Positions 340 through 45,569 are shown, counted from the first letter of the stretch. The stretch is DNA of 64,000 nt from an uncultured virus (IMG/VR IMGVR_UViG_3300018878_000121) (IMGVR_UViG_3300018878_000121:1-64000); one strand, 5' to 3'. The notes: generated by a model from the sequence alone, not told the origin. Program-made: numbers and translations.

Positions 340-462
340 TGGTGGGGACTGAAGGATTCAAACCTTCAAACACGTGCTCCTAATGCAAAAAGAAAAATTG
401 CTGACAAGACTTAAACAAGACTCACTTATAAACGCGGCTATATCAATTTTGCCTAAGTCCCC
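340..462 (-). tRNA. tRNA-Leu(TAG)-like gene interrupted by a ~45-nt insert carrying the CAGCAA clamp
   Basis: Acceptor GGGGACT/AGTCCCC-ACCA, Leu-type D arm, T arm GAAGG/CCTTC; removing ~387-431 gives anticodon arm CGTGC-ATTAGGA-GCACG. Confidence 0.7.
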
Positions 463-562
463 ATAATAAAGTTTTTTATACTAGACTTTAAACTAGTCAG
501 TTTTAAAGAAAAACTATAACTTTATTGATAATTATACATACTCTACCCAGCGAATTACCAAA

Positions 563-637
563 TGGCTGCGGTGGTAGGATTCGGACCTACGAATGGAGGC
601 TTCAAAGACCTCAGTCTTACCACTTGACGACACCGCA
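563..637 (-). tRNA. tRNA-Gln(TTG)
   Basis: TGCGGTG/CACCGCA acceptor, G73, CCA; anticodon loop CTTTGAA. Confidence 0.93.
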
Positions 638-650
638 TTATTTAATTTAT

Positions 651-726
651 TGGTGGAGCTGATGGGAATTGAACCCATGACCTATAGCTTGCAAAGCTAT
701 TGCTCTCCCAACTGAGCTACAGCCCC
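651..726 (-). tRNA. tRNA-Ala(TGC)
   Basis: GGGGCTG/CAGCTCC-ACCA with G3:U70; loop TTTGCAA. Confidence 0.96.
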
Positions 727-731
727 ATATC

Positions 732-847
732 AAGACACATTTTTTTATATTGCTTCACCCATTAAGCTATTTATCAAATTAAGTGGCTGATAAAATCGGA
801 CTTGAACCGATACTACATATAATATGTATAATTGCTGAATGTGTCTT
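732..847 (-). ncRNA. Circularly permuted tRNA-like gene inside CAGCAA clamp (anticodon possibly CAT)
   Basis: Order on minus strand: AAGACACATT-CAGCAA, T arm ATCGG-TTCAAGT-CCGAT, TTTATCA-G-CCA, linker, TGATAAA, D arm, AATGTGTCTT. Confidence 0.75.
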
Positions 848-858
848 TATTTAAATTA

Positions 859-1068
859 TTAAATTTCTATATACGCAATCGCGCAATCACAATTACTTAC
901 ATACTCACGAATTTGTTCTGCTGGGTCTTCTGGGTCCAGCCCTTCCCAACATTTCTCTCTGCCTCTAAGATATTTACACAATGCCTCTGATGGATTATCA
1001 GCTACAATTTTTTGAATATCAAGAAGATAATCAAAAAAATCAATAAAACTAACTACATAAGTTTTCAT
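859..1068 (-). CDS. hypothetical protein
   Basis: ORF downstream of a TTGA..TATAAT promoter and purine-rich RBS. Confidence 0.6.
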   Translation of the reverse strand: MKTYVVSFIDFFDYLLDIQKIVADNPSEALCKYLRGREKCWEGLDPEDPAEQIREYVSNCDCAIAYIEI

Positions 1069-1147
1069 AAATCATAATCTCTCTTTCTTTATTTTCTATA
1101 TATATTATATCATATTTTTTTATAAAAATCAAATTAAGATTTTTAAC

Positions 1148-1274
1148 TAGACATTTTTAAAGAAAACATTTTCCAGATGTTCGCGTATACCAATACCGCC
1201 TGAAGCCCTACTTTTGACGGGCTACTTGGGATTTGAACCCAAATCTTCTAAGAAGAAATTGCTGTAAATATCTA
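1148..1274 (-). ncRNA. Circularly permuted tRNA-Ser(GGA) inside CAGCAA clamp, break in variable arm
   Basis: T arm TTGGG-TTCAAAT-CCCAA, GTAGCCC-G, linker, GGGCTTC, D arm, intact anticodon arm AACAT-CTGGAAA-ATGTT; clamp TAGATATTT/AAATGTCTA. Confidence 0.78.
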
Positions 1275-1319
1275 TAAGAAATAAACTTAATCAATTATAT
1301 AAGAAAGGAGTAATGAACC

Positions 1320-1482
1320 TAGACTTCAAAAAACTATAACGATTATGCCAGTAAATAACCTCGTTTGTTTTTCATTATATAATTATTTACTATAGGCTTA
1401 CATTTCTCTATTAAATTAAAAGAAAAATACCAGTATAAGAATTTAAAATTCTGTATCTTGTTTATATTGCTGAAGAAGTCTA
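1320..1482 (-). ncRNA. CAGCAA clamp element with non-tRNA cargo
   Basis: TAGACTTC-TTCAGCAA ... GAAGTCTA. Confidence 0.5.
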
Positions 1483-1485
1483 AAA

Positions 1486-1561
1486 TGGTCGGAGTGACAG
1501 GATTTGAACCTGCGGCATCTTGGTCCCAAACCAAGCGCTCTACCAACTGAGCCACACCCCG
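1486..1561 (-). tRNA. tRNA-Pro(TGG)
   Basis: CGGGGTG/CACTCCG-ACCA; loop TTTGGGA. Confidence 0.95.
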
Positions 1562-1679
1562 ATAAACGCAGGCTTAACGGGCTTTTTTGCGCAAACGCAT
1601 TATCCTTCCTGCTAACGTGGGTGAATTTTTATTTCTTTCACCTTAGAAAGAGAGTTTATTCTTAGCTACTCACAAACTT

Positions 1680-1756
1680 TGGTAGTCCAGCTGAGATTCG
1701 GACTCAGGACCTCCCGATTATCGGTCGGGTGCGCTAGCCAACTGCGCCACTGAACT
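1680..1756 (-). tRNA. tRNA-Ile(GAT)
   Basis: Cloverleaf; arm CCCGA-CCGATAA-TCGGG (C33), ACCA end. Confidence 0.88.
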
Positions 1757-1759
1757 AAA

Positions 1760-1834
1760 TGGCGGTCCTGCGGAGAATTGAACTCCGGTTACCAATGTGA
1801 CAGACTGGTGTAATAACCACTATACGACAAGACC
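1760..1834 (-). tRNA. tRNA-Asp(GTC)
   Basis: Loop CTGTCAC, G73, CCA. Confidence 0.93.
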
Positions 1835-1840
1835 ATTTAC

Positions 1841-1915
1841 AAGACGGAATTTTAATAGCTACTTTAATTCCCAAAATTAATGCTTCTAAAAAAATAAATT
1901 TGCTGAATCCGTCTT
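1841..1915 (-). ncRNA. CAGCAA clamp enclosing an isolated anticodon-arm-like hairpin (TGG)
   Basis: AAGACGGA-TTCAGCAA ... TTAAT-TTTGGGA-ATTAA ... TCCGTCTT; directly downstream of a promoter. Confidence 0.6.
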
Positions 1916-1959
1916 TTTTATTTTCTATATATATATTATATCATATTTTTTTTAAAATG

Positions 1960-2820
1960 TCAAATTGTAGTTATAAAAGCTTGATAACCTTTTGCTTTCA
2001 AATCATTTACAACTTTTCCAGCGTTATTCTTTATAGAATAAGCCCCAACTTGAATTTTATAATATCCATTAATTTTTCTAATGTATGCTCTTCCATAACC
2101 AGCATTTATTGTGTCTGGTAAAGAAATGATTTTTTCTAAAAATGCTTCTGCCAAATGTTTCTTTGAAAAAGCACCAAGTTGAACACGATAAATTGTTTTT
2201 GGTTTTAAATAGATTGCGACCACATTATCAACAGCTCTATTATACCAAGCTGATGTAATTGATTTACCATCGTGTAGAATCTTGGTACTACCTCCACCAT
2301 CAAGGTTGATAGCATAAGTTACCCCCAATTGTAATAAAAATGATTGAAGTTGAGCAAAATTCATTCCAGGAGACTCTACAGCTATAACATACACATTATC
2401 ATGATTATATGCTAAAACAGTACGTCTTGCTTTATAATTAATTTCAGCTCCGGCAGTAATTGAAACCTTTTTTCCATTTTCAATCAATACTGGATAAGCA
2501 CTAATAAAATCTGTAAAAGGTAATTTACCTAAAGTTCCATAAGTAAGAGAACCATTTACAATTCCCATACCTTCATTAAATTCTGAATTTGTACTAATTA
2601 TTTCACCATCATCTTGATAATTAAAACAAGTAGTTCCATCAGCCATAGAAAAAAATCCACCATTACAAATAATCGCAGGTTTTACTTCACAAGCATCATA
2701 ATACTTGCTTAAAGTTTGCCAAGGCTGGGCGCACAAATCCATATCAATTGTTTGAATTTCATCTTTTGGAATTTCAACAACTGTGATATACTTAAAATTG
2801 CTTGGATTATAAATTTTCAT
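1960..2820 (-). CDS. Phosphodiester glycosidase (NAGPA-like) with C-terminal SPOR peptidoglycan-binding domain
   Basis: NGGFF, RT, and AINLDGGGST motifs; C-terminal YRVQLGAFS...YKIQVGAYS repeats. Confidence 0.85.
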   Translation of the reverse strand: MKIYNPSNFKYITVVEIPKDEIQTIDMDLCAQPWQTLSKYYDACEVKPAIICNGGFFSMADGTTCFNYQDDGEIISTNSEFNEGMGIVNGSLTYGTLGKLPFTDFISAYPVLIENGKKVSITAGAEINYKARRTVLAYNHDNVYVIAVESPGMNFAQLQSFLLQLGVTYAINLDGGGSTKILHDGKSITSAWYNRAVDNVVAIYLKPKTIYRVQLGAFSKKHLAEAFLEKIISLPDTINAGYGRAYIRKINGYYKIQVGAYSIKNNAGKVVNDLKAKGYQAFITTI

Positions 2821-2875
2821 TTTAATAACACCTTTCTTTAAAATATTTTTTCATAAATTAAAGAAAATTATTTAA

Positions 2876-2920
2876 AGATGACTGTTGGATTTGAACCAAC
2901 ATAAAAACTCCTTTGTCACC
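2876..2920 (-). ncRNA. tRNA minihelix-like remnant (acceptor + T arm only)
   Basis: GGTGAC/GTCATC stem and GTTGG-TTCAAAT-CCAAC; no D or anticodon arm. Confidence 0.45.
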
Positions 2921-2932
2921 ATATAAAAAGAT

Positions 2933-3160
2933 TTAAGCAAATCTTTTAGCAAAATTTAAAAAACTCTTAGGGTCTGCGCCATCAGATACTACAAGATTAA
3001 CTTTATGTCCAATCAATGTAAATAAAGCAAGCAAACTTCTCGCATCTACAATCGTAGAATCTGCGCTGACTTTAATATCATAATTTTGTTTAATAGCAGC
3101 TTCATTTAAATCCTTAGCTAATGAAACTGTCATTATTGAAATAGGATAAACCATTTTCAT
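2933..3160 (-). CDS. HPr-family phosphocarrier-like protein lacking His15
   Basis: 75 aa; VDARSLLALFTL resembles the HPr Ser46 signature. Confidence 0.7.
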   Translation of the reverse strand: MKMVYPISIMTVSLAKDLNEAAIKQNYDIKVSADSTIVDARSLLALFTLIGHKVNLVVSDGADPKSFLNFAKRFA

Positions 3161-3185
3161 CTTCCTTTCTCTAATTAATAATTAC

Positions 3186-3279
3186 AAGACTCTAATTCAA
3201 TAATTCAAAAATACCACACAGGAGGAAACCTACGCAACACAATTCAGAATAAAAATTTATAAATTGCTGTTTGAGTCTT
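3186..3279 (-). ncRNA. CAGCAA clamp element with hairpin cargo
   Basis: AAGACTC-AAACAGCAA ... GAGTCTT. Confidence 0.55.
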
Positions 3280-3281
3280 TT

Positions 3282-3357
3282 TGGTTCTCCCAACAGGAGT
3301 TGAACCTGTATCTCGCCCTTATAAGGAGCTTCCTCTAACCATTGAGCATATGGGAGA
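3282..3357 (-). tRNA. tRNA-Ile(TAT)
   Basis: TCTCCCA/TGGGAGA-ACCA; GCTC-CTTATAA-GGGC. Confidence 0.82.
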
Positions 3358-3507
3358 ATATTTGGGGTAGTTTTTACTGTAGCCTGCGGTTTCACTACCA
3401 AACCCAACTGAAACTCCACTATTCACCGCCCCATTAATGGGGTCTACCCGGCTCTAATAGCTTCAACGTTACGATAACACTCATAGTTGTTATCTTTTAG
3501 CGATCGC

Positions 3508-3585
3508 TGGGGTATCCTATGAGATTTGAACTCATGATTTCTTGAACCACAATCAAGCGTCTTAACCAACTAGACCAAGGACACC
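3508..3585 (-). tRNA. tRNA-His(GTG)
   Basis: G-1:C73, loop TTGTGGT, CCA. Confidence 0.94.
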
Positions 3586-3607
3586 ATAAGGGGAAATTAA
3601 TCCCCAA

Positions 3608-4753
3608 TTAAACCGCTTTAAAAGTTTTATTTTCATAAGTATCGCAACGATTTAAAATTATATATTCAAACTCTCTTTTACTATCTTTTTCTTTTTCTCG
3701 TTTAGCAACTTCTTTATCCATTCCCCAATAGTCATCATCATCAACACAAGGACGGATATGACTACCATCAATGCGCAAGCCACCATTTTTTTCATGAGTA
3801 AAATCACTGATATCAATTTCTATATCAATATATCTCTTATTTTTAAATGAAGAGGTATCTGCTAAACCTCTACAATAAATAACAGATTTTTCAGCAAGTA
3901 AATCAATAGAATAATGATAACCGCAAAATACTTCTCCAGTAGTAGAATAGGCAACAATATCATAATATACATTACCATCTCTACGAATATTTAAAAACTG
4001 TAAGGCATCATTAAAAGTTTCACCTTGATTAAGTTCAAACGCAATAGCACGAAGCAAATCATAGGTTACATTAGAAATATTAGAAAATCTAATTACATCA
4101 TCAATATAATGATGATATTCTGCCGCAAGCTTATCAGTAAGATATTCTCTAATTTCATCTGCTTCTGGAGCATTAACTGTAAAATGATAATGAAATCTAC
4201 CCGGCCTGTTAAGAAGATATGAACTAAGAGAATTTACATTATTACAAGTAATTACAAATAATTTCTTACCATTATTCATGCCATCAAATAAAGAAAGCAT
4301 TGCTTCTTGCGGATTAAAATTATCATCTCTACTTGCGCTTTGAAAATTCTTTTCAAATTCATCAAAAATAATTACGACTTCCTGCTCAATCGCCGCAAGG
4401 AATCCTTCAATACCAGGGATATAATCATTTACAAGAATTACAGGATATCCGCATTTTTGCGCTTTTTCAGCCAAAAGTCTAGCAAATAAGGATTTACCTA
4501 CACCTTTTTGACCACTCAGAATAAGACCAAGATTGCGGTTAAAACTTGAAAAAGAAGCAAGAACTTTACAAACTTTCTGGTCATGAGAACCATAAATCTT
4601 TTCTTCATTAGGGATAAGATTAGGTCTCTTGGAAAGAAAGAAACCAGTTTCTTTAGAAAAAGAAACATTATAAGATAAAGCCGGAAGATTTGTATAAGTT
4701 TTTACATCTTCACCATAAATTTGATAATTATTACCAAAATTTACTACATTCAT
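3608..4753 (-). CDS. AAA+ family ATPase
   Basis: Walker A GQKGVGKS, Walker B IIFDEFEK, sensor TCN, arginine finger NRPGRF. Confidence 0.92.
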   Translation of the reverse strand: MNVVNFGNNYQIYGEDVKTYTNLPALSYNVSFSKETGFFLSKRPNLIPNEEKIYGSHDQKVCKVLASFSSFNRNLGLILSGQKGVGKSLFARLLAEKAQKCGYPVILVNDYIPGIEGFLAAIEQEVVIIFDEFEKNFQSASRDDNFNPQEAMLSLFDGMNNGKKLFVITCNNVNSLSSYLLNRPGRFHYHFTVNAPEADEIREYLTDKLAAEYHHYIDDVIRFSNISNVTYDLLRAIAFELNQGETFNDALQFLNIRRDGNVYYDIVAYSTTGEVFCGYHYSIDLLAEKSVIYCRGLADTSSFKNKRYIDIEIDISDFTHEKNGGLRIDGSHIRPCVDDDDYWGMDKEVAKREKEKDSKREFEYIILNRCDTYENKTFKAV

Positions 4754-4909
4754 TTGTTTTACCTCTTCATAATAATTAAAAAGTTATCACTCTTTAAGAC
4801 TCTCTGATAACTGAACTACGAGATGTTTACTTGTTATATTACTTGTGCACTTTCATATAATTCGTCTGATTATACACCAGCTATATTAAACTTTCTCACA
4901 CTTGGTGTC

Positions 4910-4998
4910 TGGCGGAGGGGGTGGGATTTGAACCCACGGGAGGTTGCCCTCCGACGGTTTAGTAGACCGTTGCTTTCAGCCAGCTCAGCCACCCCTCC
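4910..4998 (-). tRNA. tRNA-Ser(ACT)
   Basis: GGAGGGG/CCCCTCC-G-CCA, long variable arm, arm ACGGT-CTACTAA-ACCGT. Confidence 0.9.
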
Positions 4999-5191
4999 AT
5001 ATAAAATATAAGAAGCTAAAGAGTAAAAAACGAATTTCTTTATCCACCTTAAAGAAATTTGGATGTAAAAACTCTCCTTAGCCGAAATAGTTTTTGTTTC
5101 CATACATTTAAATATATGGAAAAGGTAGTTCCCCGCAGCCAAATTCACCATATATCATATAAATTTGGATCCCTGTTTGCGGTTCTTTAAA

Positions 5192-5264
5192 TGGGCCCGG
5201 TCGGACGATTTGAACGTCGTCTTCGCCTTATGAGGGCGATAAGCTACCATTGCTCCACCACCGG
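5192..5264 (-). tRNA. tRNA with CAT anticodon (Met or Ile2), imperfect acceptor/T stems
   Basis: TCGCC-CTCATAA-GGCGA; GTTCAAAT loop; CCA. Confidence 0.75.
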
Positions 5265-5358
5265 AATATAATGGGCTTTAACCTTTCAGCCCTGTAGGAC
5301 ACATTGGCTTTTGTTTTCTTTTCTTGGCGGTACCTAATTTGTTTTATCATCCGCCCAC

Positions 5359-5434
5359 TGGCTCCCGGTGCTGGGCTTGAACCAGCGACATCATGATTAA
5401 CAGTCATGCGCTCTACCAACTGAGCTAACCGGGA
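5359..5434 (-). tRNA. tRNA-Asn(GTT)
   Basis: TCCCGGT/ACCGGGA-G-CCA; loop CTGTTAA. Confidence 0.96.
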
Positions 5435-5442
5435 ATATAAAC

Positions 5443-5552
5443 AAGACACATTAATCGCAAAATATTGGACTTGAACCAATTACTTTCAGAGTATCAGTCT
5501 GACGCTCTACCAAATGAGCTAATCTCGCTATGAGGTTTGCTGAATGTGTCTT
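5443..5552 (-). tRNA. tRNA-Ile(GAT)-like body (5456-5528, no CCA) enclosed by CAGCAA clamp
   Basis: AAGACACATT-CAGCAA, complete cloverleaf with TCAGA-CTGATAC-TCTGA, AATGTGTCTT. Confidence 0.78.
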
Positions 5553-5560
5553 TAAAATTT

Positions 5561-5794
5561 TTACATTACTACTCTTTGAACAAAAGGCTTTTTTGATATT
5601 TTACTAAACCTAGTTTTTTGATAAGAAGTTGTTATTGTATATAACCTTTCTGGTTTTATATTTCCAAATCTTCTAATAATATAAGCACCTTGTTTCATAT
5701 GTGAAGTTTTATGATCTATTTGAAATTTTGCCCATTGCAAAATTTCTAAACCATTAAACTGAGTTCCAGGCACATAACTTAAAATATTTCGCAT
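5561..5794 (-). CDS. hypothetical protein
   Basis: ORF with GAAGG RBS. Confidence 0.55.
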   Translation of the reverse strand: MRNILSYVPGTQFNGLEILQWAKFQIDHKTSHMKQGAYIIRRFGNIKPERLYTITTSYQKTRFSKISKKPFVQRVVM

Positions 5795-5819
5795 ATATAC
5801 CTTCTATTATAATTTTTAA

Positions 5820-5892
5820 TGGTTGCGGAGGGTGGTGTTGATCCACCGGAGTCCAGTTTATGAGACTGGATTGAAGACCGCTTCTCCCCGCC
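5820..5892 (-). tRNA. Atypical tRNA-Met(CAT), initiator-like 1:72 mismatch
   Basis: CCAGT-CTCATAA-ACTGG; G1:A72 mismatch; reduced D arm; T-loop ATCAACA; ACCA. Confidence 0.7.
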
Positions 5893-5976
5893 AGAAAGAG
5901 AGAGCCTTTTTCAGACTTGCTCAGGTCTTGAAAGAAAGTAAAACAATGAATTTATGAAAGTTGCGAATTCATCGCG

Positions 5977-6053
5977 TGGTAGTCCCGGCGGGACTTGAAC
6001 CCGCATTGTCGGCTTGAAGGGCCGGTGTTACTGACCTGTTAGACGACGAGACC
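5977..6053 (-). tRNA. tRNA-Glu(TTC)
   Basis: Loop CCTTCAA; GGTCTCG/CGGGACT-ACCA. Confidence 0.85.
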
Positions 6054-6057
6054 AAAT

Positions 6058-6207
6058 TTATTCATCAAAATTTTTATATTTTGATTTTCGTTTATAAGAA
6101 CCTTTACCTTTGCGCGCAGGAACTATATGATGCTGCCGCATTGTTTGTAAATATTCTTGTAACTCTTCTGGATTCTTCTTAAAAATACGCTTATTAATTT
6201 TCTTCAT
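6058..6207 (-). CDS. Small basic protein with ArfA-like KGKGSYxRK motif
   Basis: 49 aa from ATG at 6207 (GAGAGG RBS); RQHHIVPARKGKGSYKRKSKY. Confidence 0.6.
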   Translation of the reverse strand: MKKINKRIFKKNPEELQEYLQTMRQHHIVPARKGKGSYKRKSKYKNFDE

Positions 6208-6367
6208 TTTCAACCTCTCGTTTCCACATTTCAATAAGAACTTCATACATTTCATCGGACTGAATCTGGACAGAAAAATCATTAAACATATTTTATTTTC
6301 CTCTTTTCTTATTTTCTATAAATATTATAACATATTTTTTTAAAAATGTCAAGAAAAATTTTTTAAT

Positions 6368-6442
6368 TGGTTTCAATGATGGGATTTGAACCCATGACTC
6401 TCAAATTAAAAGTTTGATACTCTTCCACTGAGTTACATTGAA
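6368..6442 (-). tRNA. tRNA-Lys(TTT)
   Basis: TCAAA-CTTTTAA-TTTGA; ACCA. Confidence 0.92.
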
Positions 6443-6507
6443 TTATTTCTTTTTGATTTTCTATATATATTATATCATATTTTTTATAAAAAATCAAATT
6501 AAGATTT

Positions 6508-6753
6508 CTAAATTAAATGTTCATCTTTTTCAATCATATTAAACCATTCTTCTTTGACATGAACAAATGGTCCTTCAAAAAGCTGAATCTCTGCTTTAAC
6601 CAAATCATTTCCATAATATTCTTCAATTTGGAACATAGCGTCTTTAAAATCTTTAATATTTGTAAGAACAATGTAATCTACATTCTCTTCATTATCAATA
6701 GAATTATACCAGCTTATTTTACCAAGAGCGAAAAATTCATTCATAAATTTCAC
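6508..6753 (-). CDS. hypothetical protein
   Basis: Acidic ORF with AAAAGGTG RBS; ends in TAG followed two codons later by TAA. Confidence 0.6.
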   Translation of the reverse strand: MKFMNEFFALGKISWYNSIDNEENVDYIVLTNIKDFKDAMFQIEEYYGNDLVKAEIQLFEGPFVHVKEEWFNMIEKDEHLI

Positions 6754-6769
6754 CTTTTCAATAAATTAC

Positions 6770-6871
6770 AAAACACATTTTTTTGATATGGGACTTGAAC
6801 CCATGTTCTCACTGTTGCTGAGTGATGTCTTAACCGCTTGACAAATCATTTTATATTGCTGTATGCGTTTT
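6770..6871 (-). ncRNA. tRNA-like body (loop CAGCAAC, nominal GCA) with truncated acceptor inside CAGCAA clamp
   Basis: AAAACGCAT-ACAGCAA, D arm GTC..GAC, TCACT-CAGCAAC-AGTGA, T arm ATGGG/CCCAT, ATGTGTTTT. Confidence 0.68.
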
Positions 6872-6873
6872 TA

Positions 6874-6958
6874 TGGTGCTCGGAATGGGACTTGAACCCA
6901 TACGCCTTGCGGCAGGAGTTTTTGAGACTCCCATGTCTGCCGATTCCATCATCTGAGC
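6874..6958 (-). tRNA. tRNA-Leu(CAA)
   Basis: GGAGT-CTCAAAA-ACTCC, long variable arm, ACCA. Confidence 0.94.
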
Positions 6959-7434
6959 ATGAGCGTTTGATTTTTAGGAAAACAAAGGGCAACAAACCGC
7001 AACTTATATATAGTAATTAAATATGAAAGTTTGCGAACATATTTAATAAATCGCACTTTGGGTCAGCGCTAACCCACGCGGCATCACGTATTACTTTTAT
7101 ATAATCACGCTCTTATCAAAAGTAACAAAAATTTTAAGCAAGTTCCAGTGAATTCGCCCTTCCTTTGAGCTTGGTGCCGCCACATCCATGTCCTCAGATG
7201 CTGAATTTTCTTGGTTTATTCAGAAACCATACAATTTTTGTCACCGTTAAAAATTGCCAAAAAACGGAAGTATTTTTTTCCCTCTTTGTAAAAGATACTT
7301 AAAAAAATCAGTCTATCACATTTCTGGGGGTTGATGGTTTAATTTAATTATAACTTTTAATAAATTAAATTCTATAACTCTTATACAACTTAACCCAACC
7401 TTAACCGTGATAAATTTTAAGGATTTTAATTTAA

Positions 7435-7510
7435 ATGCTGGACACAGGATTTGAACCTATACCACTCTGTTCCTTGAGAGGATGCTAACCAATTACACCA
7501 GTCACAGCAT
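7435..7510 (-). pseudogene. Degenerate tRNA-like sequence (8-nt anticodon loop, bulged acceptor, no CCA)
   Basis: D arm GGTGT-AATTGGTTA-GCATC, CTCT-CAAGGAAC-AGAG, T arm ATAGG-TTCAAAT-CCTGT. Confidence 0.6.
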
Positions 7511-8041
7511 ATGAAATAATCTTTTTTAATTTTCTATATATATTATAACATATATTTTTTAAAAAATCAAATAAAGAACTTTATAAGTACATTGCTTCAG
7601 AATCAAACACGAGATTTTCTTCTTTACATGGAGATAACTTACTTCTTTTTTATTTAATTAGCCGTAAGCTCGCTTAAACCTTCCCCGTTTACTTGCAGCA
7701 TCAACAAGCACTAATTAAATTAAGAGTGTAAAACTACTCTAATAAGAAATATTATCTTGGTTTTTCATCCGCAGAGAGGGAAACCTTGCAAAACCCTTGC
7801 GCGCAATCGGCTTTTATCCGGCACACCCAGCCCTAAACAGCCACAAAACGTCTGGGGTAAAAATCAACTTAGTTTTCTCTAAACTATTTGGCTATTACCA
7901 TCCTGCTGTAAAGTATTGATTTTAATTTATGTTTCGCAAGATTCACAACTGCGAAAAGGGTAATTCTTTCTCTTCGGACGCTACCCTGTAATGCCCAGCA
8001 CGGCAGTTTAATGACTCCATCCGCTGTCATTAAATTTTTTT

Positions 8042-8326
8042 TTATTCACGTTCAATAGAAGTAATACCAAAAATTAATTTAAAAGCTTTATACGCATAAT
8101 CATATTTACTAGCATAGATTTCATCAACAGCTTCTTCTGCCGCACATTCATCTTCTGCTTGCGCTTCAATCTCTTGAATTTCTTCTTCTATATTAGGATA
8201 AAGTTCAAAAAATAAAATATCACTAAAATCATCACTATTAATTGTTCTTTCCAATACTTTAATAAAAGCATTTCTCCATTTTTCTAAAGAAATTCCACCA
8301 ACAATTACATTAGTATTATTTGTCAT
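8042..8326 (-). CDS. hypothetical acidic protein
   Basis: Own promoter and AAGGA RBS. Confidence 0.7.
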   Translation of the reverse strand: MTNNTNVIVGGISLEKWRNAFIKVLERTINSDDFSDILFFELYPNIEEEIQEIEAQAEDECAAEEAVDEIYASKYDYAYKAFKLIFGITSIERE

Positions 8327-8397
8327 ATTTTATTTCCTTTCTTAATTTTCTATAAATATTATAACATATTTTTTATAAAAAATCAAATTAAGATTTT

Positions 8398-8474
8398 TGG
8401 TACAGGTGAAGGGACTTGAACCCTTACATTTTAGTTCCTAAGACTAACGCCTATGCCAATTCGGCTACACCTGC
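8398..8474 (-). tRNA. tRNA-Leu(TAG) with short variable loop
   Basis: TTAGT-CTTAGGA-ACTAA, Leu-type D arm, 5-nt variable loop, ACCA. Confidence 0.88.
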
Positions 8475-8865
8475 TTAAATGGTGGAGAAAGATGGATATC
8501 ACACCCGTGTGCTTAACCTCTCCACTGTTGGCATATATCACACTAGCCTTAAGGTCGGCTAACCACTTATTTGTTGATTACTGGAATTTTTGTTTTTCCA
8601 ATTAGACAGTTTTCTGATAGTGATGGGACCCCTGACAAAACCCATTTCCTGCCTTCCTTATGGAACGCCACGTCCGGAGTAGGACCTTGTAGCGAAACTG
8701 CTACACACGCTTGAGGGCGTTGGTGATGGTTATTGTTGTATGGGCTTACCATCATATCCCAGTTGATGCTTCTAACCACTACGCACCGGAACCGTCGGTT
8801 GTCTTTCCAACTGTCTAGCTTTTTTGATAGCACTAAGTCTATCTTACTCCTTCGCTAAGGGAGAT

Positions 8866-8948
8866 TGGTGCCGAATGACAGAATTGAACTGCCTCCTCCC
8901 GCAACGCATTCAGCGGGCCTGCAAGTGCTACCATTACACCAATACGGC
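8866..8948 (-). ncRNA. Aberrant tRNA-like RNA (extra 7-nt D/anticodon connector, 10-nt loop)
   Basis: GCCGTAT/ATTCGGC-ACCA, normal D and T arms, CCCGC-TGAATGCGTT-GCGGG. Confidence 0.65.
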
Positions 8949-9269
8949 ATACATGAACAAGCAAACGGACAAAATCTTGTTCTGAGAGATTACGCACTCT
9001 CTTTTAGCAAGGCTTTATGTACACTATCCTTTACTTTAACTTCCTCTTTTAGCGTTTTATAATAAGGCTGTTCATCTCACTCCATTTACTACAGCTGCTG
9101 TGGCTTTCAACCATATGGTCCTTCATTAAGTCCCTCCCGCATCCCTAATAACAAGCTGTATTGGTTCACTTAATGGCTTCGTAGCACCTTATTTATTATT
9201 ATTTTTTACATATATATTATATCATATTTTTTTATAAAAATCAAATTAAAATTTTTTATTTAATTTTAC

Positions 9270-9409
9270 AAGACGATTTAATATTTTCTTTTACCTGCTC
9301 TACCAACTGAGCTATTTCTATCTGCTAAGATAGAAAGTGGGACTTGAACCCACGACCCGGGTGTTGTCAGCACATAAAAATAATTAAAATAAATTGCTGT
9401 AATCGTCTT
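9270..9409 (-). ncRNA. Circularly permuted tRNA (anticodon GAC, Val) inside CAGCAA clamp
   Basis: AAGACGATT-ACAGCAA, GTG-CTGACAA-CACCC, T arm GTGGG/CCCAC, TTTCTAT, linker, ATAGAAA, D arm GCTC-AGTTGGTA-GAGC, AATCGTCTT. Confidence 0.78.
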
Positions 9410-9598
9410 TCTTATTTTCTATAAATATTATATCATATTTTTTTATTATTTTCAAATAATAATTTTTAATCAAAATAAAAGAAATGTATTATTAATCAAA
9501 AAAGTTTTAAATTTCTTAAAAACTCTTGTCCTAAAAATTTTTATTTTTTTATCTTTTTTGATTTTCTATATATATTATATCATATTTTTTTATAAAAA

Positions 9599-10474
9599 TC
9601 AAATTAAGATTTTATTATTTAATTCATTCATTTTTTGACGAATTTCATCCTAATATTCAGGTTTTACTAAATAATATAATAATATTTCTAATAAATTTTC
9701 TTCTGATGTTAATCTACCTTCAATTTTAAAATGTTTAAATCCCATAGGTATATAAATATTTTTTATAAAATCTCTACTTATAAATAAAGGATTATTTTTA
9801 GTATATTCAAAAATACGACAAGTAGCATTTTTACATTTAAAAGGTTTAATAGATGGATCTAATACTTGTAATGAAATATTTTCATAATGCTATTTGCGAT
9901 ATTGACATCTTGGGATACAAACTGGATTTATTAAAAATTCACATTTGTGTTTATTTGGGAGCTATTTTAAAAAATCAAAATTATTATTATGATTATAATC
10001 TAAAACTACAATGTCATAATTTTTATTTAATTCATTTAACTAATCTTCTTCATTATTTAAACATTTAGTTGTAGATGATATAATTTTATAATTGGGAAAA
10101 TTTTTTCTAATATAAATTTCTAATATATTAGAAGCAAGAACTATACTATTATTTTCATTATTAAATTTTTGCAATAATGAATTACAATACGTGTCTGATA
10201 AATGCTTTTCTTCTAATAAAGAATTAGAAAATATTAAACTACAAGAAATATTATTAATTTTTAAAAATTTTAATATAAAATCTTCTGAAATAGCCGTCTA
10301 ATTGTACTAATATCTTCCACCATTCCATAACGCATTTAATGGAGCTCCATATATAGAACTTATTTCAAAATCTGAATAAAATTTTTCTGAATTATTTTTT
10401 AGTATTTGAATAAAATTCTAATAAAAATAAAATTTTTCAAATAATCCGGGTAAATGAAATTGAATTTTATTCAT
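9599..10474 (-). CDS. hypothetical protein, possibly peptidase U32-like fold (TAG read-through)
   Basis: Long frame MNKIQFHLPGLF...SIYG...WNGGR interrupted by TAG; 3' end approximate. Confidence 0.55.
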
Positions 10475-11618
10475 TATTTATCTCCCTTATATTTTCAAAC
10501 TATGTTTTATAATAATTATGAGAAAATAATTTAATCATTGATTTAATATCATAATATTGTGTTGTTGATGGAAGCTCTAAAAAAGAATTAAATAAATTTT
10601 TATATTCTTTTAAATAAAAACTATTATTTAGATCATTTTTAATAGTATTATTTTTAATTAAAACAATATTATTATCTATTAATTTAAAATTATTTTTAAT
10701 TAATTCAATAAATTCTAAAATTATTATATCTCTATCGTTACGCAATAATGAAGAAGAAATTTTTAAATTAAAATTGTAATACTTTAAAATTCCATAAATC
10801 ATAATTAATATAAACTAAAAAGTTAAATTAAAATTATTTTTTATTATTTGCTCTGAATCAAATAAAATATCAAACAATAAAAAATAAATTTTTATAATTA
10901 TATCATTATTATTTAAACAACAATCTTTTATTTCATCTAAATAATAGAATAAACAGCTTAACCATATCATCTAATCTTTTATAGTAATAAGTTTTTGCTA
11001 ATAAAAATATTCCATCCATATACAATTACTTCTAGTAAAATTTGAATTAGTTCTATAAATTCGTTGATAAAACTAATAATTTTTACAAATATAATTTGAG
11101 CTCAAAAACATTGTTATAGTTTTAAAAACAGAATCTTCACATCCATCTGTCATATAAGTAGGAAAATTTAAATTATATCTTTTTAAAAAAGAATTATTAT
11201 AAACAATACCTTGTAAAGTATCACAAGGTTCTTTTGAAGATTCTATAATATTATCAGAAGAATTTTTCTATGTAATAATAAAATCATATTTATTATCAAG
11301 CAAACACAATATATCATTAATAATTATATCATCATCATCAATAAAGGTTGTAAAATCATCTTGATTATTTTTCAATAATTTTAATGCCATATTACGAGCA
11401 TTACCAGGCCCAGAATTTTTTTCTGTTTTTAAATATAAACAATTAAAATATTGCTTATATTTTTCAATTAAATAAAGATATTCTGTTGAATATTTAGAGC
11501 AATCATCAACAACATAAACAATAATTTCTGATAAATTTGAAATATTTAATTTAATTGACTATAAACATTTTTCTAAATATTGATGATGATTAAAACAAGG
11601 AATAATAATATTTAACAT
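10467..11618 (-). CDS. Glycosyltransferase family 2 (TAG read-through)
   Basis: MLNIIIPCFN, VVDDCS, NSGPGNARN, FIDDDD motifs. Confidence 0.85.
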
Positions 11619-11626
11619 ATTTTAAA

Positions 11627-12217
11627 TCACCAATCAAAATAAATAATTTTTGATTTAGATGAAATGCCAATATTATCTGTATTGGTTATATCTAAATGCA
11701 TCTATGAACCACTAACTAATTGCTAATATTTTTTTAATATATCAAAAAAGGATTCAAAATATGGCTATAAAACTATAGTATCTAAATTATAATAGGATAT
11801 TTTTGGATTTTTTCTTTTTGCTCTTTCTATCAAATCATTACTATAATTATAACTATTAAATAAATTAATTATATAAGAAGGAGCTAAATTAAAAATATGC
11901 TTCTAATTTAACTCTAATATTTTTTCTCTTTTCAATTTTAAAAAATTTTTATTAAGTTTATTTATAAATTTAATTACATAAGTATTATTTATTATAAATA
12001 CTTCTGCTTGAGAACCTTTATTTACTTTTTCATAATTACCATTAAAAAAACATGTATTAATTTCTTTTTCATTTTCTAAAAAATTAATTAGCTATGGATA
12101 AATATTATTTACAAAATCTTGCTAAATAAATTCATCAAACTAACAATTCTAACTCATATCATTAAAAGCTTCAAGAATCTAATCCTAATTATATTCTTTC
12201 CAAACATTAAATTCCAA
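11627..12217 (-). CDS. Minimal protein-kinase/APH-like phosphotransferase (TAG read-through)
   Basis: GSQAEVF..YVIKF N-lobe and HLDITNTDNI..IYFDW catalytic motifs; TTG start. Confidence 0.55.
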
Positions 12218-12543: not shown

Positions 12544-13719
12544 TTAATTCTTCCTTTCTCTCAAATCATAATTATATAAATAATCCCCAATACAGTCATC
12601 ACATACCATAACATCTGAATGATTAATAGCATTCTTGCCGCAAATCAAACAAGGTACAGAAGCTCCAATCACAAATCTAGTATTTTCACTTATCATAGGA
12701 ACAGAGCCAAAAGTTAAATATGAATATACTGGATCATAATAAGATGAATCTAAAATATCATTAAAATGATATGTCATAGAACCATTTTTAATTAAATCAT
12801 TTAAATCAATTAATTTACCTTGTCCTGCATAAATGTGCGGATTTATATCAAAAATATCACCATTGATATTAAATTTTGTAATTTTATCATCACACCATTC
12901 GCAATAATGACAGCTATGATTAGAATTTGAATAAAATCCAGCAGAAGATAATAAATTAGAAATAATAAAATCTAATGCTCGTTTACATCCATAAGGATAA
13001 GACCTTCCCGCAAATATCATACGCCAATCATTTGAAAAGAAAAGTAATGTTCGCCATTTCTTAGAATTCCAAGAGAACGAAAACGCAGGAAGAATTTCTT
13101 CTTTTTCAGATTTAATATAACAAACTATAGTAGAATAATCTACCATATAATTTAAATTGCCAGTGCGGTGCTCACCATCAAGCGCATGACAGGAACGCCA
13201 ATTATGAGTATTTTCACTTACAGATAAATAATCTAAAGGATGAACTGATAAACACATATATCCTTCAACTTTATCTAACTGAATAATTTGACTTGCTAAA
13301 TCTTGTAATTCAGCAAGAAATTCTTTATCATTAATAAAATATTTAAATGCTTTAATTAATTTTGTCCCTTTAGTAATAATTTCTCCGGTAGGCGTTTCAT
13401 AATCTTCTGATACAACATTACTAAAGAAACTTTTTTTCATTGTATATACAAAATCTGCCAAATCTTCTACTTCATAATAGTCATATAATTTACAAATGAA
13501 GTCTTCTAATTTCATCTTCTTTTGGCTTGCCTCAAGAGTAAATGAAACCTTTTCTGGATATTGATAAATTAAATTACCACCCATAACTTCAATAAAATCT
13601 CTTTTAGCATTTAACCAAATTTCAAACAGTTCATCAACTTGCGGATTTTCAATCCCTTGCGATACACGAATAGCAATTTTAAATTGCTCTTTAATTTCAT
13701 TAATATTAAAATTAGCCAT
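12544..13719 (-). CDS. Conserved phage protein (LSVHPLDY..SEN..WRSC family), C-terminal Zn ribbon
   Basis: Paralogous motif to 16203-17777; start taken at MANF. Confidence 0.75.
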   Translation of the reverse strand: MANFNINEIKEQFKIAIRVSQGIENPQVDELFEIWLNAKRDFIEVMGGNLIYQYPEKVSFTLEASQKKMKLEDFICKLYDYYEVEDLADFVYTMKKSFFSNVVSEDYETPTGEIITKGTKLIKAFKYFINDKEFLAELQDLASQIIQLDKVEGYMCLSVHPLDYLSVSENTHNWRSCHALDGEHRTGNLNYMVDYSTIVCYIKSEKEEILPAFSFSWNSKKWRTLLFFSNDWRMIFAGRSYPYGCKRALDFIISNLLSSAGFYSNSNHSCHYCEWCDDKITKFNINGDIFDINPHIYAGQGKLIDLNDLIKNGSMTYHFNDILDSSYYDPVYSYLTFGSVPMISENTRFVIGASVPCLICGKNAINHSDVMVCDDCIGDYLYNYDLRERKN

Positions 13720-14704
13720 TCTTTTTCTTCTCCTTGCGACAGATAAAGCATTTAATCTCATTCGGATTTTTTCCATCAATTTCAAAAGGTTCACCACACT
13801 CCGCACACCATCTCACATTATTAGAAACGCAATCAGGACAAAACATTTTTGTTTCAGTTTTTGATGTATGAATAGGAAACAATTCATATTCAAGAAATGT
13901 TTTCTTACATTTTGCGCAATTTACCCATTCATCAGCAAAATCAAAATTTTTAGTTGCCATAGCCAATGTTGCTAATTTGCCATAAGAATACTGATTTGGA
14001 ATATAATCATATGGGATAATTACATTATTAATATCTTTAAGCATATTAATAACACGATTAATAGTTTTATACATTGGATGAATGTGTAAAGTTTCACTAT
14101 AAGAATGTTCATCTTGATAACCGATAGAAAGATTTACACCAGCAATTTTCCAAGCAGGACAAATCTCACTAATATCAGAAAAACTTCCCCAAGCTTCTAC
14201 AAATCCAAAAGACTCAACATACTGGATAAATAACTGATTATCGCAATCATAAAATACGCAATCAACTACTCCTCTGCGGTCAAGCTCAATAATATATTTC
14301 ATTTCCGCAAAAGGCTTTGGATGTTCAGTAATTAAAGCCGTAGCACCTTTACCACCGACCTCTTCATCCATGGTAAAAATAACGTGCGGCTTGTAGCCTT
14401 GACGAACAATTTTTAAAATAGCAAATACACCAGCCCTATCATCGGCACCAAGTCCCTGCGGACTCCACAATACACCTTTGCGCGAATCATAATAAATATC
14501 AGAGGGCTGGGTGCTATAAACCGTATCTAAATGTGCTACCAGTGCGACCGGGATATCTCCAACCGCATATACATATTCTTTTGTCGCAATGACTTGTTTA
14601 TATTCTTTTTGAAGGAATGTCATCATAGTTTTCAATAGAACTTTATCAGACATTTTAAGTAAATGCGTAATTAAACGATAATCTTGTTTATTTAATACTT
14701 CCAT
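13712..14704 (-). CDS. Zn-dependent M28/M20-family peptidase with C-terminal Zn fingers
   Basis: AHLDTV, GLGADDRAGV, DEEVGG, ELDRRG, EH motifs. Confidence 0.85.
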   Translation of the reverse strand: MEVLNKQDYRLITHLLKMSDKVLLKTMMTFLQKEYKQVIATKEYVYAVGDIPVALVAHLDTVYSTQPSDIYYDSRKGVLWSPQGLGADDRAGVFAILKIVRQGYKPHVIFTMDEEVGGKGATALITEHPKPFAEMKYIIELDRRGVVDCVFYDCDNQLFIQYVESFGFVEAWGSFSDISEICPAWKIAGVNLSIGYQDEHSYSETLHIHPMYKTINRVINMLKDINNVIIPYDYIPNQYSYGKLATLAMATKNFDFADEWVNCAKCKKTFLEYELFPIHTSKTETKMFCPDCVSNNVRWCAECGEPFEIDGKNPNEIKCFICRKEKKKNG

Positions 14705-25975: not shown

Positions 25976-26422
25976 TTAAATACCATTGTTCTTAAAGAAA
26001 GTATCAAAAACATTATCCAAATTAGACTTATCAGTCTTAATTGAGAGGGTAGCATTGCCAGGCTTCAGCATATGAGCAAAATTACCAAACATAGAGAATG
26101 CTTCGCGCATTTCCGCAACAGTTTCATCAACCAAATCAACAAGGTCTTCTGCGGTGATATCAATATCCTTATACTGGGCGGCAAGGTTGGGGTACCAGCG
26201 CTTAATGTAGGCTGCGATAGCATCCTTCATCTTGCCCATGTCCGCAATCTTATCTGCCCTCTCCTGGACCTTCTTTCTAGCCTCTTCTTCCTTAGCCTCT
26301 GCTCTCTTGGCTTCGTCAATCTTTTTTGCCTCGTTCAGTGCGGCGGTGAATTCCTTGGCAATATCATCTACAGATTTGCCCTCCTGAATCATCTTAAGAA
26401 TGTCATTAGAATTGTAATTCAT
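25976..26422 (-). CDS. hypothetical coiled-coil protein
   Basis: Promoter + GGAG RBS. Confidence 0.8.
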   Translation of the reverse strand: MNYNSNDILKMIQEGKSVDDIAKEFTAALNEAKKIDEAKRAEAKEEEARKKVQERADKIADMGKMKDAIAAYIKRWYPNLAAQYKDIDITAEDLVDLVDETVAEMREAFSMFGNFAHMLKPGNATLSIKTDKSNLDNVFDTFFKNNGI

Positions 26423-28947: not shown

Positions 28948-29004
28948 TTTTGCATCTTTTTGACTAAAATTTAAGTGAAAAGTGGGAAAAATTCCCACTT
29001 TTCT

Positions 29005-29421: not shown

Positions 29422-29447
29422 CTCTTTTGGTTAGGCGTGGCAGAGGA

Positions 29448-33526: not shown

Positions 33527-33557
33527 GGATTACGTCCCCCCTCTTGGGGGAGGGGGA

Positions 33558-33947: not shown

Positions 33948-34091
33948 GGTATCAATCCTTTCAGCGTAGGTCGCTACCCATTATTTTTATTTTACCGATT
34001 GGAGGTCGTGCCCTCTTGCTTCGGTATATATATTATATCATACTTTGAGCGATTTGTCAAGGGGTTTTGCAAAAGTTTTTGAAAAATTTTT

Positions 34092-44479: not shown

Positions 44480-44507
44480 ATAAGTATAAAATAACTGGAG
44501 GTAAAAA

Positions 44508-45566: not shown

Positions 45567-45569
45567 TTT

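Follow-up and report, generated by a model that had tools for sequence, protein, structure and literature searches.

Clamp-bearing tRNA-like RNAs in a large phage genome: probable Y-RNA-like partners of a divergent Ro60-type protein

Introduction

The Y RNAs of bacteria, as described by Chen et al. (2014, PMC4201824), are encoded less than 4 kb from rsr and on the same strand, and their partner Ro60 contacts a 5'-strand motif, GNCGAAN0-1G. By the same account YrlA and other bacterial and phage Y RNAs have paired 5' and 3' ends with an adjacent conserved motif on the 5' strand, in a modular design whose other half, in YrlA, is a tRNA mimic ordered as T arm, closed acceptor-like hairpin and D arm; several may occur per genome, near a Ro60-type gene (PMC4201824). 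The RNA elements described below share this modular design, the several copies per genome and, in related phages, the nearby same-strand gene of a Ro60-type protein. They also recall the Thermus phage phiLo, for which PMC12135203 describes a phage Ro60 that binds two Y-like RNAs, Yrl1 and Yrl2, encoded just upstream of its gene, each built as stem-bulge-stem from a paired 5'-3' stem and a bulge carrying the short conserved motif CGAA.

The elements lie in a 64,000-nt stretch of an uncultured virus (IMGVR_UViG_3300018878_000121), hereafter the window, for which a preliminary description had proposed an undescribed tRNA-processing or circularisation system. We consider it probable, by analogy with YrlA, that the nine loci are instead genes for Y-RNA-like RNAs, which would partner a divergent phage Ro60 through a new putative binding-site motif.

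Results and discussion

Nine clamp elements in the window

All nine minus-strand loci of the preliminary description are present in the window (Table 1), and the stem pairs quoted there are correct, G.U pairs included. Its assignments of cargo also stand, as does its reading of one locus (W9) as a normally ordered tRNA with an intron-like insert. Eight loci consist of the pattern WARAY-N5-CAGCAA with a covarying partner strand of 7-10 bp ending in G, the ninth having the hairpin order inside a tRNA. The W9 hairpin has one U.U mismatch and a spacing of 9 nt as against 10 nt, and is therefore a slightly divergent copy of the closed hairpin, of which other phages have intact versions. The anticodon of the W3 tRNA duplicates that of a free tRNA-Ile(GAU) at 1680-1756. 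In W2 the anticodon-like loop itself reads CAGCAAC (6815-6820).

Table 1. Clamp elements in the window, with stem strands (5'/3') and enclosed sequence
Element	Form	Position	Strand	Stem	CAGCAA	Cargo	Remarks
W1	open	9269..9409	-	AAGACGATT/AATCGTCTT+G	9394-9399	permuted tRNA-like: small hairpin (loop CUGACAA), T arm, closed acceptor hairpin, D arm	promoter-like TTGATT-17-TATAAT site immediately before element
W2	open	6769..6871	-	AAAACGCAT/ATGTGTTTT+G (variant)	6856-6861	normal-order tRNA-like body, 4-bp acceptor	Rfam tRNA 36 bits, model positions 4-67
W3	open	5442..5552	-	AAGACACATT/AATGTGTCTT+G	5537-5542	whole tRNA-Ile(GAU), 5456-5528	ARAGORN; Rfam 66 bits
W4	open	3185..3279	-	AAGACTC/GAGTCTT+G	3264-3269	non-tRNA, about 70 nt	
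W5	open	1840..1915	-	AAGACGGA/TCCGTCTT+G	1900-1905	non-tRNA	promoter-like site immediately before element
W6	open	1319..1482	-	TAGACTTC/GAAGTCTA+G	1467-1472	non-tRNA, 139 nt, AT-rich	
W7	open	1147..1274	-	TAGATATTT/AAATGTCTA+G	1259-1264	permuted long-variable-arm tRNA-like; complete anticodon arm, loop CUGGAAA (GGA)	break between anticodon stem and variable arm; parsed by eye
W8	open	731..847	-	AAGACACATT/AATGTGTCTT+G	832-837	permuted tRNA-like: small hairpin, T arm, acceptor hairpin with GCCA, D arm; without canonical anticodon loop	
W9	closed hairpin	340..462	-	insert holds GAGTCTTG ... CAGCAA; GTCTTG 416-421 and 405-410	398-403	normal-order tRNA, 44-nt insert after position 28	tRNA by Rfam, 32 bits at 343-462

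The 16-nt composite pattern has ten matches in the 126,353-bp record, nine of them on the minus strand and eight of those within 731-9409; the reversed control pattern has none in the same record. At all eight sites the partner strand lies 40-260 nt downstream and pairs from the first base for 7-10 bp, followed by G. Since 7.7% of positions in the same 10 kb satisfy this pairing rule, eight out of eight would arise by chance with a probability of roughly 1e-9. CAGCAA on its own is not over-represented in the window (44 seen, 35 expected), so the signal resides in the composite.

A covarying RNA family restricted to phages

Clamp elements are a genuine, conserved and covarying RNA family with tRNA parts in several permutations. 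At the core of the handle, AAGAC/GUCUU and two covarying pairs form a 7-bp helix, which a G..A pair closes and which is followed on the 5' strand by single-stranded (N)UACAGCAA; immediately before CAGCAA, A (85%) and U (68%) predominate. The stem covariation claimed for the window is borne out in 60 distinct, independent IMG/VR elements chosen without reference to pairing, in which positions 6 and 7 are paired in 98% of cases each, with four Watson-Crick pair types each, against means of 61% and 56% (maxima 72% and 77%, respectively) in 1000 shuffles of the partner strands. Positions 9-10 pair at chance level in these 60 elements. Orthologues show G.U variants (AAGGC/GTCTT) that keep the pairing, which favours an RNA stem.

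Three topologies occur: open ends round permuted tRNAs, open ends round whole tRNAs or non-tRNA hairpins, and a closed hairpin of about 45 nt that interrupts tRNAs, normal in other respects, at 28|29 or 29|30. The 118 distinct elements comprise 48 permuted and 17 normal-order forms, 13 with a T arm only and 39 without a T arm. The module is widespread and phage-specific in IMG/VR, where the stem reaches 7 bp or more in 86 of 135 pattern matches, most of them with T arms; across 596 Gb of cellular genomes such stems accompany 22 of 120 matches, of which only three have a T loop, all in Clostridia MAG contigs. Unlike YrlA, the module reaches 8-9 copies per phage, inside tRNA arrays.

Its several copies per genome, their insertion at similar positions across different tRNA species and their variable cargo could also be read at the DNA level, as a small mobile hairpin or the boundary of a cassette, inserting into tRNA genes without any RNA function of its own. 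We regard this as extremely improbable, given that fixed sequence is confined to the outer 5 bp and the inner pairs covary, that the G.U variants preserve pairing, that copies are stably orthologous among relatives, that all 138 copies near the Ro60-like gene discussed below lie on its strand, and that no transposase or integrase is linked to the modules among the proteins scanned.

An Rfam search with the clamp returned no family at threshold. The preliminary description had considered a ribozyme cleavage signal. In such a small self-cleaving or self-ligating ribozyme the asymmetric CAGCAA loop would dock on the junction and catalyse cleavage, and host RtcB would join the ends; the short conserved core, in an asymmetric internal loop beside helices, would suit this, and theta (minimal HDV-like) ribozymes are described as small conserved RNAs in the tRNA arrays of recoded gut phages (PMC10879173), the same sort of phages often carrying DRB0094-type RNA ligases. 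Unlike theta ribozymes, the module encloses its cargo rather than trailing a tRNA 3' end. It also lacks the nested HDV-like order P1-P2-P3-P1-P4-P2 with a catalytic C in J4/2, since on our reading its strand order leaves no place for P1/P3 upstream of the hairpin, and no Rfam ribozyme family, HDV-like ones included, matches even at E up to 1-5. With conserved bases distant from any plausible cleavage site, and with tight linkage to a Ro60-like gene as the simpler reading, a ribozyme is very unlikely.

A putative Ro60-like partner gene on the same strand

Proteins of the DUF2828/DUF7788 family are encoded in 39 of 42 module-bearing records, including all 24 that are at least 90% complete (DUF7788 94-190 bits). 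Of 12 related large phages, six have a DUF7788 match of some kind and only one exceeds 90 bits, the sole one with the exact motif. In the complete 114-kb phage G454 a 477-aa ORF, with Pfam DUF2828 and DUF7788 matches and a DxSGS MIDAS motif, begins 95 nt past the only module and on the same strand.

An AlphaFold2 model of the G454 protein (pLDDT 81) was compared with the PDB using Foldseek, and the top 13 matches were all Ro60/TROVE structures (E 3e-8 to 7e-5; TM-scores 0.42-0.58 over about 500-570 aligned columns), among them Xenopus and human Ro60 and Deinococcus Rsr, with phiLo Ro60 (PDB 9KOP, 9L5Y) the best. The Pfam TROVE model matched in none of 37 records, and a profile search of PDB sequences with the partner protein gave no match. 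The protein is predicted to be a Ro60 homologue by its modelled fold (TROVE ring plus vWA), where sequence methods fail, and is most likely a previously unrecognised phage version of Ro60, a protein of RNA quality control, that has been annotated only as DUF2828/DUF7788.

The linkage holds in the reciprocal direction. Within 10 kb on either side of the gene in 79 loci selected by the protein alone (1.52 Mb), modules lie on the gene strand in 61 loci and on the opposite strand in none, a count of 138 modules versus 0. Of these, 129 are upstream and 38 are no more than 1 kb from the gene, and a module is found at most 4 kb from the gene in 45 of the 79 loci. The remaining 18 of 79 have no module at the thresholds used; at least the G454 group was missed among them because its stem is only 6 bp. 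In the genome under study, no Ro60-like gene is present in the 126,353-bp record; the record has a completeness of 71% and the array runs up to the beginning of the contig, so that the link to a nearby same-strand gene rests on the relatives, where it is found.

This strand-specific co-occurrence places the clamp module with Y RNAs of the YrlA type, and away from the circularisation or processing that headed the preliminary description.

Comparison with Y RNAs and a proposed mechanism

W1 matches the Rfam YrlA model (RF02553) over positions 1-114 with 34.5 bits (E 1.5e-4 in a 10-kb search), the best score of any locus; none reaches the gathering score of 69. A second match (507-618, 24.3 bits) lies outside the nine loci. 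W1, W7 and W8 have the tRNA-like domain of T arm, acceptor-like hairpin and D arm, as do 48 of the 118 distinct family members; the non-tRNA members lack it. The published Ro-site motif (GGUCCGA, GNCGAAN0-1G or CGAA) is absent; in its stead (N)UACAGCAA follows AAGAC-NN on the 5' strand at fixed spacing.

The elements differ from YrlA in this handle, AAGAC/GUCUU with UACAGCAA rather than GNCGAAN0-1G, in an Rfam score at half of threshold, and in a protein that has diverged beyond the reach of the TROVE Pfam model. Their bodies differ as well: there are complete tRNAs with anticodon arms, whole tRNAs joined through the acceptor end and non-tRNA hairpins, and the closed hairpin is inserted in normal-order tRNAs. 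From the phiLo system they are set apart by 13-14% protein identity in the structural alignment, by CAGCAA in place of CGAA, and by tRNA bodies, of which none is described for the phiLo RNAs in the passages of PMC12135203 drawn on here.

On the analogy with Y RNAs, each RNA would comprise two modules, a conserved handle and a variable body, mostly a tRNA or tRNA mimic and sometimes a small hairpin. The handle would be the docking site for a ring-shaped Ro60-type protein, putatively the DUF2828/DUF7788 protein whose gene adjoins the RNAs on the same strand in related phages. The tRNA-shaped body might then act as an effector arm that gates the Ro ring; alternatively, it may tether the ring to host PNPase, or to enzymes specific for tRNA shape or for particular tRNA species. 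Tethering of PNPase has been shown for other Ro/Y RNPs. In such a scheme folded shape would matter and strand connectivity would not, so that the same object could be encoded permuted with open ends, round a whole tRNA, or as a closed hairpin in the anticodon stem. The earlier suggestion of a stabilising handle on tRNA mimics or decoys comes close to this Y-RNA-like reading, a decoy handle as such being only near it.

Are the bodies spliced into working tRNAs?

Circularly permuted tRNA genes with BHB motifs (red and green algae, Thermofilum) likewise encode the 3' half ahead of the 5' half, have a short linker at the acceptor end and have termini that pair with each other. Permuted tRNA genes occur in red algae and in archaea, and with this precedent the hairpin could be a new tRNA intron and the open clamp its permuted form, the stem-held ends being joined and the hairpin excised to give working tRNAs, possibly with the Ro60-like protein as platform together with an RNA ligase of the phage or the host. 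Where the closed hairpin interrupts normal-order tRNAs at 28|29 or 29|30, these score 41-52 bits, full-length, against the Rfam tRNA model and have canonical anticodon loops that fit the tRNA body. Excision would leave a nick within a duplex, the kind of substrate that DraRnl/Rnl2-type ligases prefer; such ligases exceed the Pfam cut-off in 19 of 37 of these phages. Open-form flanks retain ..GUCUU-G-U and U-A-AAGAC.., resembling the two halves of the closed form's GUUA-type loop, and a CCA after the discriminator occurs in 14 of the 48 permuted forms as against only 1 of 17 normal-order forms.

We nonetheless regard such a maturation signal as unlikely. The conserved bases sit at the far end of the stem and on the CAGCAA strand, whereas the would-be splice junctions show no conservation; the spacing between CAGCAA and the tRNA body ranges from 8 to 26 nt; and the same module surrounds whole tRNAs, non-tRNA cargo and bodies without an anticodon loop, all of which also argues against the processing system first proposed. 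Complementarity of CAGCAA to the downstream junction is not in excess (13 of 75, 15 expected). No BHB is evident, in agreement with the preliminary description, on inspection of one hairpin-form example (L405), and unlike BHB-permuted tRNA genes the elements have a pairing stem with its own conserved sequence and a putative protein partner, and many bodies without a usable anticodon loop. Of the ligase and endonuclease genes that the preliminary description proposed to look for, the ligase is indeed frequent but just as common among related phages that lack the motif (6 of 12), RtcB occurs in 1 of 36 records, and neither an endonuclease candidate nor another RNA-processing nuclease appeared among the proteins scanned. 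No such splicing endonuclease is known in bacteria.

Redundancy and instability of the anticodons are signs against a plain decoder role of the bodies: in roughly 8 of about 19 cases the module tRNA shares its anticodon with a free tRNA of that genome, and anticodons and loop lengths vary between close orthologues. That the hairpin-bearing and permuted genes are true decoders, the Ro60-like ring holding the clamp while RNases and a nick-sealing ligase join or excise, we hold to be quite improbable. If true, bacterial viruses would here yield their first protein-assisted pathway of tRNA splicing and circular permutation, which might time the release of particular tRNAs, suppressors included, during infection.

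Against the Y-RNA-like reading we count the absence of a Ro60-like gene from the 126,353-bp record, the 18 protein-selected loci without a module, the small tRNA complement of G454, with only three tRNAs besides its hairpin-bearing tRNA-Thr, the departure of the CAGCAA handle from published Ro-site motifs, the half-threshold YrlA score, and decoder features that seem to exceed the apparent needs of a mimic. Many bodies retain U33 and, at position 37, a G next to G36 and an A in all other cases (about 17 loops, by eye); in many module tRNAs the anticodon fits the body type (Asn, Ile, Thr); and the anticodon stem would be perfect with the closed hairpin removed.

The stem-CAGCAA module and its distribution

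Inspection of the sequence confirmed that the nine minus-strand loci of the preliminary description exist as described, each with a stem whose 5' strand is followed by CAGCAA, and the cargo classes assigned there (permuted, whole or truncated tRNAs, a lone anticodon arm and non-tRNA sequence) are borne out by ARAGORN, Rfam and inspection. Eight of the nine loci have in common the 16-nt pattern WARAY-N5-CAGCAA, which matches the whole record 10 times, nine of them on the minus strand and eight inside 731-9409, with 0 matches for a reversed control pattern. At all eight sites the partner strand pairs from the first base over 7-10 bp and continues with G; of all positions in the 10 kb that holds them, only 7.7% pass this test. 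At the ninth locus (340-462), a tRNA of normal order, scoring 32 bits in Rfam, carries a 44-nt insert in which the order is ..GUCUUG .. CAGCAA.

The elements recur, on the gene strand, in relatives reached via the neighbouring AAA ATPase, and these copies include stem variants that preserve pairing through G.U, such as AAGGC/GTCTT. A pattern scan of IMG/VR returned at least 127 stretches; of the 135 matches listed, 86 form a stem of 7 bp or more, mostly with a T arm. Applied to 596 Gb of bacterial and archaeal genomes, the scan found such stems in 22/120, near the chance level, and a T loop accompanies only three of these 22, every one in Clostridia MAG contigs. Mimicry of a CRISPR or host repeat was rejected, the hairpin pattern being present in one of 401 Clostridia genomes, in single copy. 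A literature search found nothing on this module.

Covariation was assessed in 60 distinct elements picked without regard to pairing, with 1000 partner shuffles as control. Stem positions 6 and 7 are each paired in 98% of elements, using all four Watson-Crick types (shuffles: mean 61%, maximum 72%, and mean 56%, maximum 77%, respectively), position 8 is paired in 68% versus 48%, and positions 9-10 are at chance; this leaves a 7-bp helix as the module core, made up of AAGAC/GUCUU and two pairs that covary. After the core helix the 5' strand runs on as single-stranded (N)UACAGCAA, the bases just before CAGCAA being A in 85% and U in 68%. Only part of the family shows a second helix (P2) beyond CAGCAA, with runs of at least 6 bp in 45% of elements versus 25% in shuffles (maximum 36%).

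Counted over 118 distinct elements, 48 are permuted and tRNA-like, 17 are of normal order, 13 have the T arm only and 39 are without a T arm. The closed-hairpin form comprises normal-order tRNAs (41-52 bits, full-length, on the Rfam tRNA model) with an insert of ~45 nt after tRNA position 28 or 29, arranged as P2a, ..GUCUU, a GNNA-type loop, AAGAC.., UACAGCAA and P2b. In the open form, whose stem halves flank the cargo, the ends read 3' ..GUCUU-G-U and 5' U-A-AAGAC.., resembling a hairpin that has been opened within its loop. ARAGORN runs on tandemly doubled elements confirmed the permuted tRNAs; intron placement was inconsistent and was therefore not used to fix junctions.

A putative Ro60-like partner

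At a relaxed Rfam threshold, the element at 9269-9409 gave a full-length match to YrlA (Y RNA-like) of 34.5 bits, below the gathering score, which is 69. The TROVE Pfam model detected Ro60 neither in this genome (0/1) nor in the other module-bearing records (0/36), with hindsight a false negative, because the protein is too divergent for the model. The candidate partner gene was found by a screen for genes common to five module-bearing genomes. In the complete phage G454, a 477-aa ORF starts 95 nt past the single module on the same strand; DUF2828 and DUF7788 are its Pfam matches, and it contains a DxSGS MIDAS motif. When its AlphaFold2 model (built from 17 sequences, pLDDT 81) was compared with the PDB using Foldseek, the best 13 matches were all Ro60/TROVE structures (E 3e-8 to 7e-5, TM 0.42-0.58), namely Ro60 of Thermus phage phiLo, of Xenopus and of human, and Rsr of Deinococcus, with vWA/MIDAS domains lower down the list. 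The DUF2828/DUF7788 family counts no fewer than 2064 relatives at E <= 1e-10, and the titles and opening lines of abstracts mentioning DUF2828 include no apparent functional study of it.

Gene and module are closely linked. Of 42 records with modules, 39 contain DUF7788, as do 24/24 of those at least 90% complete; the three records without it are all incomplete, among them that of this phage (126,353 bp, linear class, 71% complete, the window being its first 64 kb), in which no Ro60-like gene was found. Relative G035 has its Ro-like gene about 25 kb past a tRNA-Tyr that is the counterpart of the first tRNA in the window. Across 12 related large phages there is one high-scoring DUF7788 copy only, in the sole phage with the exact motif. 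Lower-scoring DUF7788 subfamilies are represented by G443, G444, G446, G447 and G450. In the reciprocal direction, 79 loci chosen by the protein alone (1.52 Mb) have modules on the gene strand in 61 cases and on the opposite strand in none, that is, 138 modules versus 0; upstream of the Ro60-like gene lie 129 of the 138, and 38 are within 1 kb. The module thresholds miss at least the G454 group, which has a 6-bp stem, so these counts are conservative. We consider it probable that the elements, as putatively expressed RNAs that would be bound by this protein, belong to a large new branch of the Ro60/Y-RNA system present in phages of gut and rumen.

PMC4201824 places Y RNA genes on the same strand as rsr, within about 4 kb, and describes a GNCGAAN0-1G sequence near the Y RNA 5' end, contacted by Ro60, as well as a tRNA-like domain in the YrlA type. 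In phage phiLo, two Y-like RNAs whose genes lie upstream of that for Ro60 are bound by the protein; each has a 5'-3' stem and a CGAA-bearing bulge, and host PNPase joins the complex (PMC12135203). In jumbo phages, a survey records TROVE proteins for a small part of the set (PMC7824862). In architecture and in gene linkage the module family is the same as these Ro60/Y-RNA systems. Unlike them, however, it has a different handle sequence and a protein beyond the reach of TROVE models, it is found in many copies inside tRNA arrays, its bodies include complete tRNAs, and it has a closed-hairpin topology.

tRNA processing as an alternative

The preliminary description had proposed an undescribed tRNA-processing or circularisation system and suggested a search for co-occurring RNA ligases and endonucleases; specific splicing or circularisation machinery was not found. 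Neither a nuclease nor a ligase is among the 43 + 29 scanned proteins of this genome, and RtcB is in one of 36 module-bearing records. A DraRnl-type RNA ligase (PF09414) is frequent (30/37 records at E <= 1e-3, 19/37 over the cut-off), but it is also present in 6/12 related phages, 11 of those 12 being without the exact motif; equally common in motif-less phages, it is therefore not specific to the module. The genes around the ligase loci show nothing consistent. HDV-like/theta and other known ribozymes were rejected on zero Rfam matches. A role of CAGCAA as guide to a downstream junction was rejected on complementarity in 13/75, with 15 expected from shuffles.

It is conceivable, though we think it unlikely, that the same RNP has a role in maturing the permuted or interrupted tRNAs. 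Canonical anticodon loops that suit the tRNA body speak for real decoding, as does the small complement of phage G454, which has just three tRNAs besides its hairpin-bearing tRNA-Thr. However, a free tRNA of the same genome often shares the anticodon of the module tRNA, close orthologues differ in anticodon and in loop length, the conserved bases are far from the junctions, and many cargos are not tRNA at all.

If the elements are Y-RNA-like partners of a divergent Ro60, the large orphan family DUF2828/DUF7788 would, on the basis of the structural model, gain a likely function, so that Ro60 systems in gut and rumen phages may far exceed what TROVE-based surveys show. A new Ro-site-like RNA motif is thereby defined that is directly searchable. 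That complete, isoacceptor-specific tRNAs serve as bodies of Y-like RNAs, with three strand topologies and up to 8-9 per genome, points to Ro-type RNPs aimed at tRNA-specific processes, candidates being repair, anticodon-nuclease decoying and control of tRNA supply in recoded phages. 'Orphan' YrlA-like RNAs of phage tRNA arrays could likewise be explained, as their partner may have diverged beyond the reach of the TROVE model and so have gone unrecognised. Among the YrlA papers listed, none has phage tRNA arrays in its title.

The tRNA array and other features of the genome

The phage genome is AT-rich, and its late genes are open solely if TAG is a sense codon (see table); one 3306-aa ORF has 78 in-frame TAG. 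No tRNA with anticodon CUA was found within the 126 kb of the record, but such a tRNA is present in both G035 and G010, which are relatives. In a group of related loci an open clamp encloses a whole tRNA with a stop-reading anticodon, which varies among close relatives (UCA in L012, UUA in L013, L014, L015, L018 and L019). In INPHARED, blastn with 8 kb gave matches essentially at the level of tRNAs only, and no close cultured relative was found. The public sequencing runs listed for the window comprise 24 of DNA and none of RNA.

The minus-strand tRNA array spans 1-9.4 kb of the window, with 17 tRNAs (ARAGORN). A near-identical promoter-like cassette (TTGATT, 17 nt, TATAAT, then ATATATAGAAAAT) recurs in ~8 copies, dividing the array into many short transcription units. 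Between the tRNAs lie G+C-rich segments (genome ~30% G+C) that look like structured RNAs; Rfam assigned them to no family, giving just a weak drum match at 3362-3471 (29 bits versus 43), and blastn found no nucleotide-level conservation with relatives. As a trans partner of the module they were rejected, being unconserved by blastn and containing zero TTGCTG sites.

Coordinates of the modules and of other features of the genome
Feature	Position	Strand	Remark
Module loci	window 340-462, 731-847, 1147-1274, 1319-1482, 1840-1915, 3185-3279, 5442-5552, 6769-6871, 9269-9409	minus	
Promoter-like cassettes	window 1100-1140, 1925-1960, 6310-6350, 6460-6500, 7540-7570, 8350-8390, 9220-9250, 9440-9480	minus	by eye
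G+C-rich inter-tRNA segments	window 8480-9230, 7600-8030, 6960-7420, 3360-3500	minus	
TAG as sense codon	window 44500-64000, 9600-12200; G000 (record holding the window) 64-105 kb		late and structural genes
Clamp around stop-reading tRNA	L012:4501-4610		orthologues in L013, L014, L015, L018, L019
291-aa ORF	window 9599-10474	minus	7 in-frame TAG
Paralogue-looking ORFs	window 12544-13806, 16203-17777	minus	by eye
Raised G+C	window 26000-44500		~18 kb, G+C 0.33-0.42
Homing-endonuclease ORF	G000 115645-116427 (= L036:9295-10074)		GIY-YIG/NUMOD3, beyond the window

The raised-G+C stretch has no coherent ORF of at least 200 aa under table 11, table 4, TAG=Q or TAG=Q with TGA=W, and no credible Rfam match; it is apparently non-coding and unusually long for a phage. 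The 291-aa ORF, with no match in Pfam or PHROGs, is cysteine-rich in its C-terminal half, which may resemble peptidase U32 / RNA-hydroxylase proteins. The two paralogue-looking ORFs have in common an S(V/I)HPLDY..W.SC motif and cysteine-rich tails; neither has a Pfam match, and the first matches just an unknown-function family in PHROGs. The homing-endonuclease ORF sits between two ORFs that jointly make DNA polymerase III alpha, which suggests an intron or intein-like interruption of that gene.
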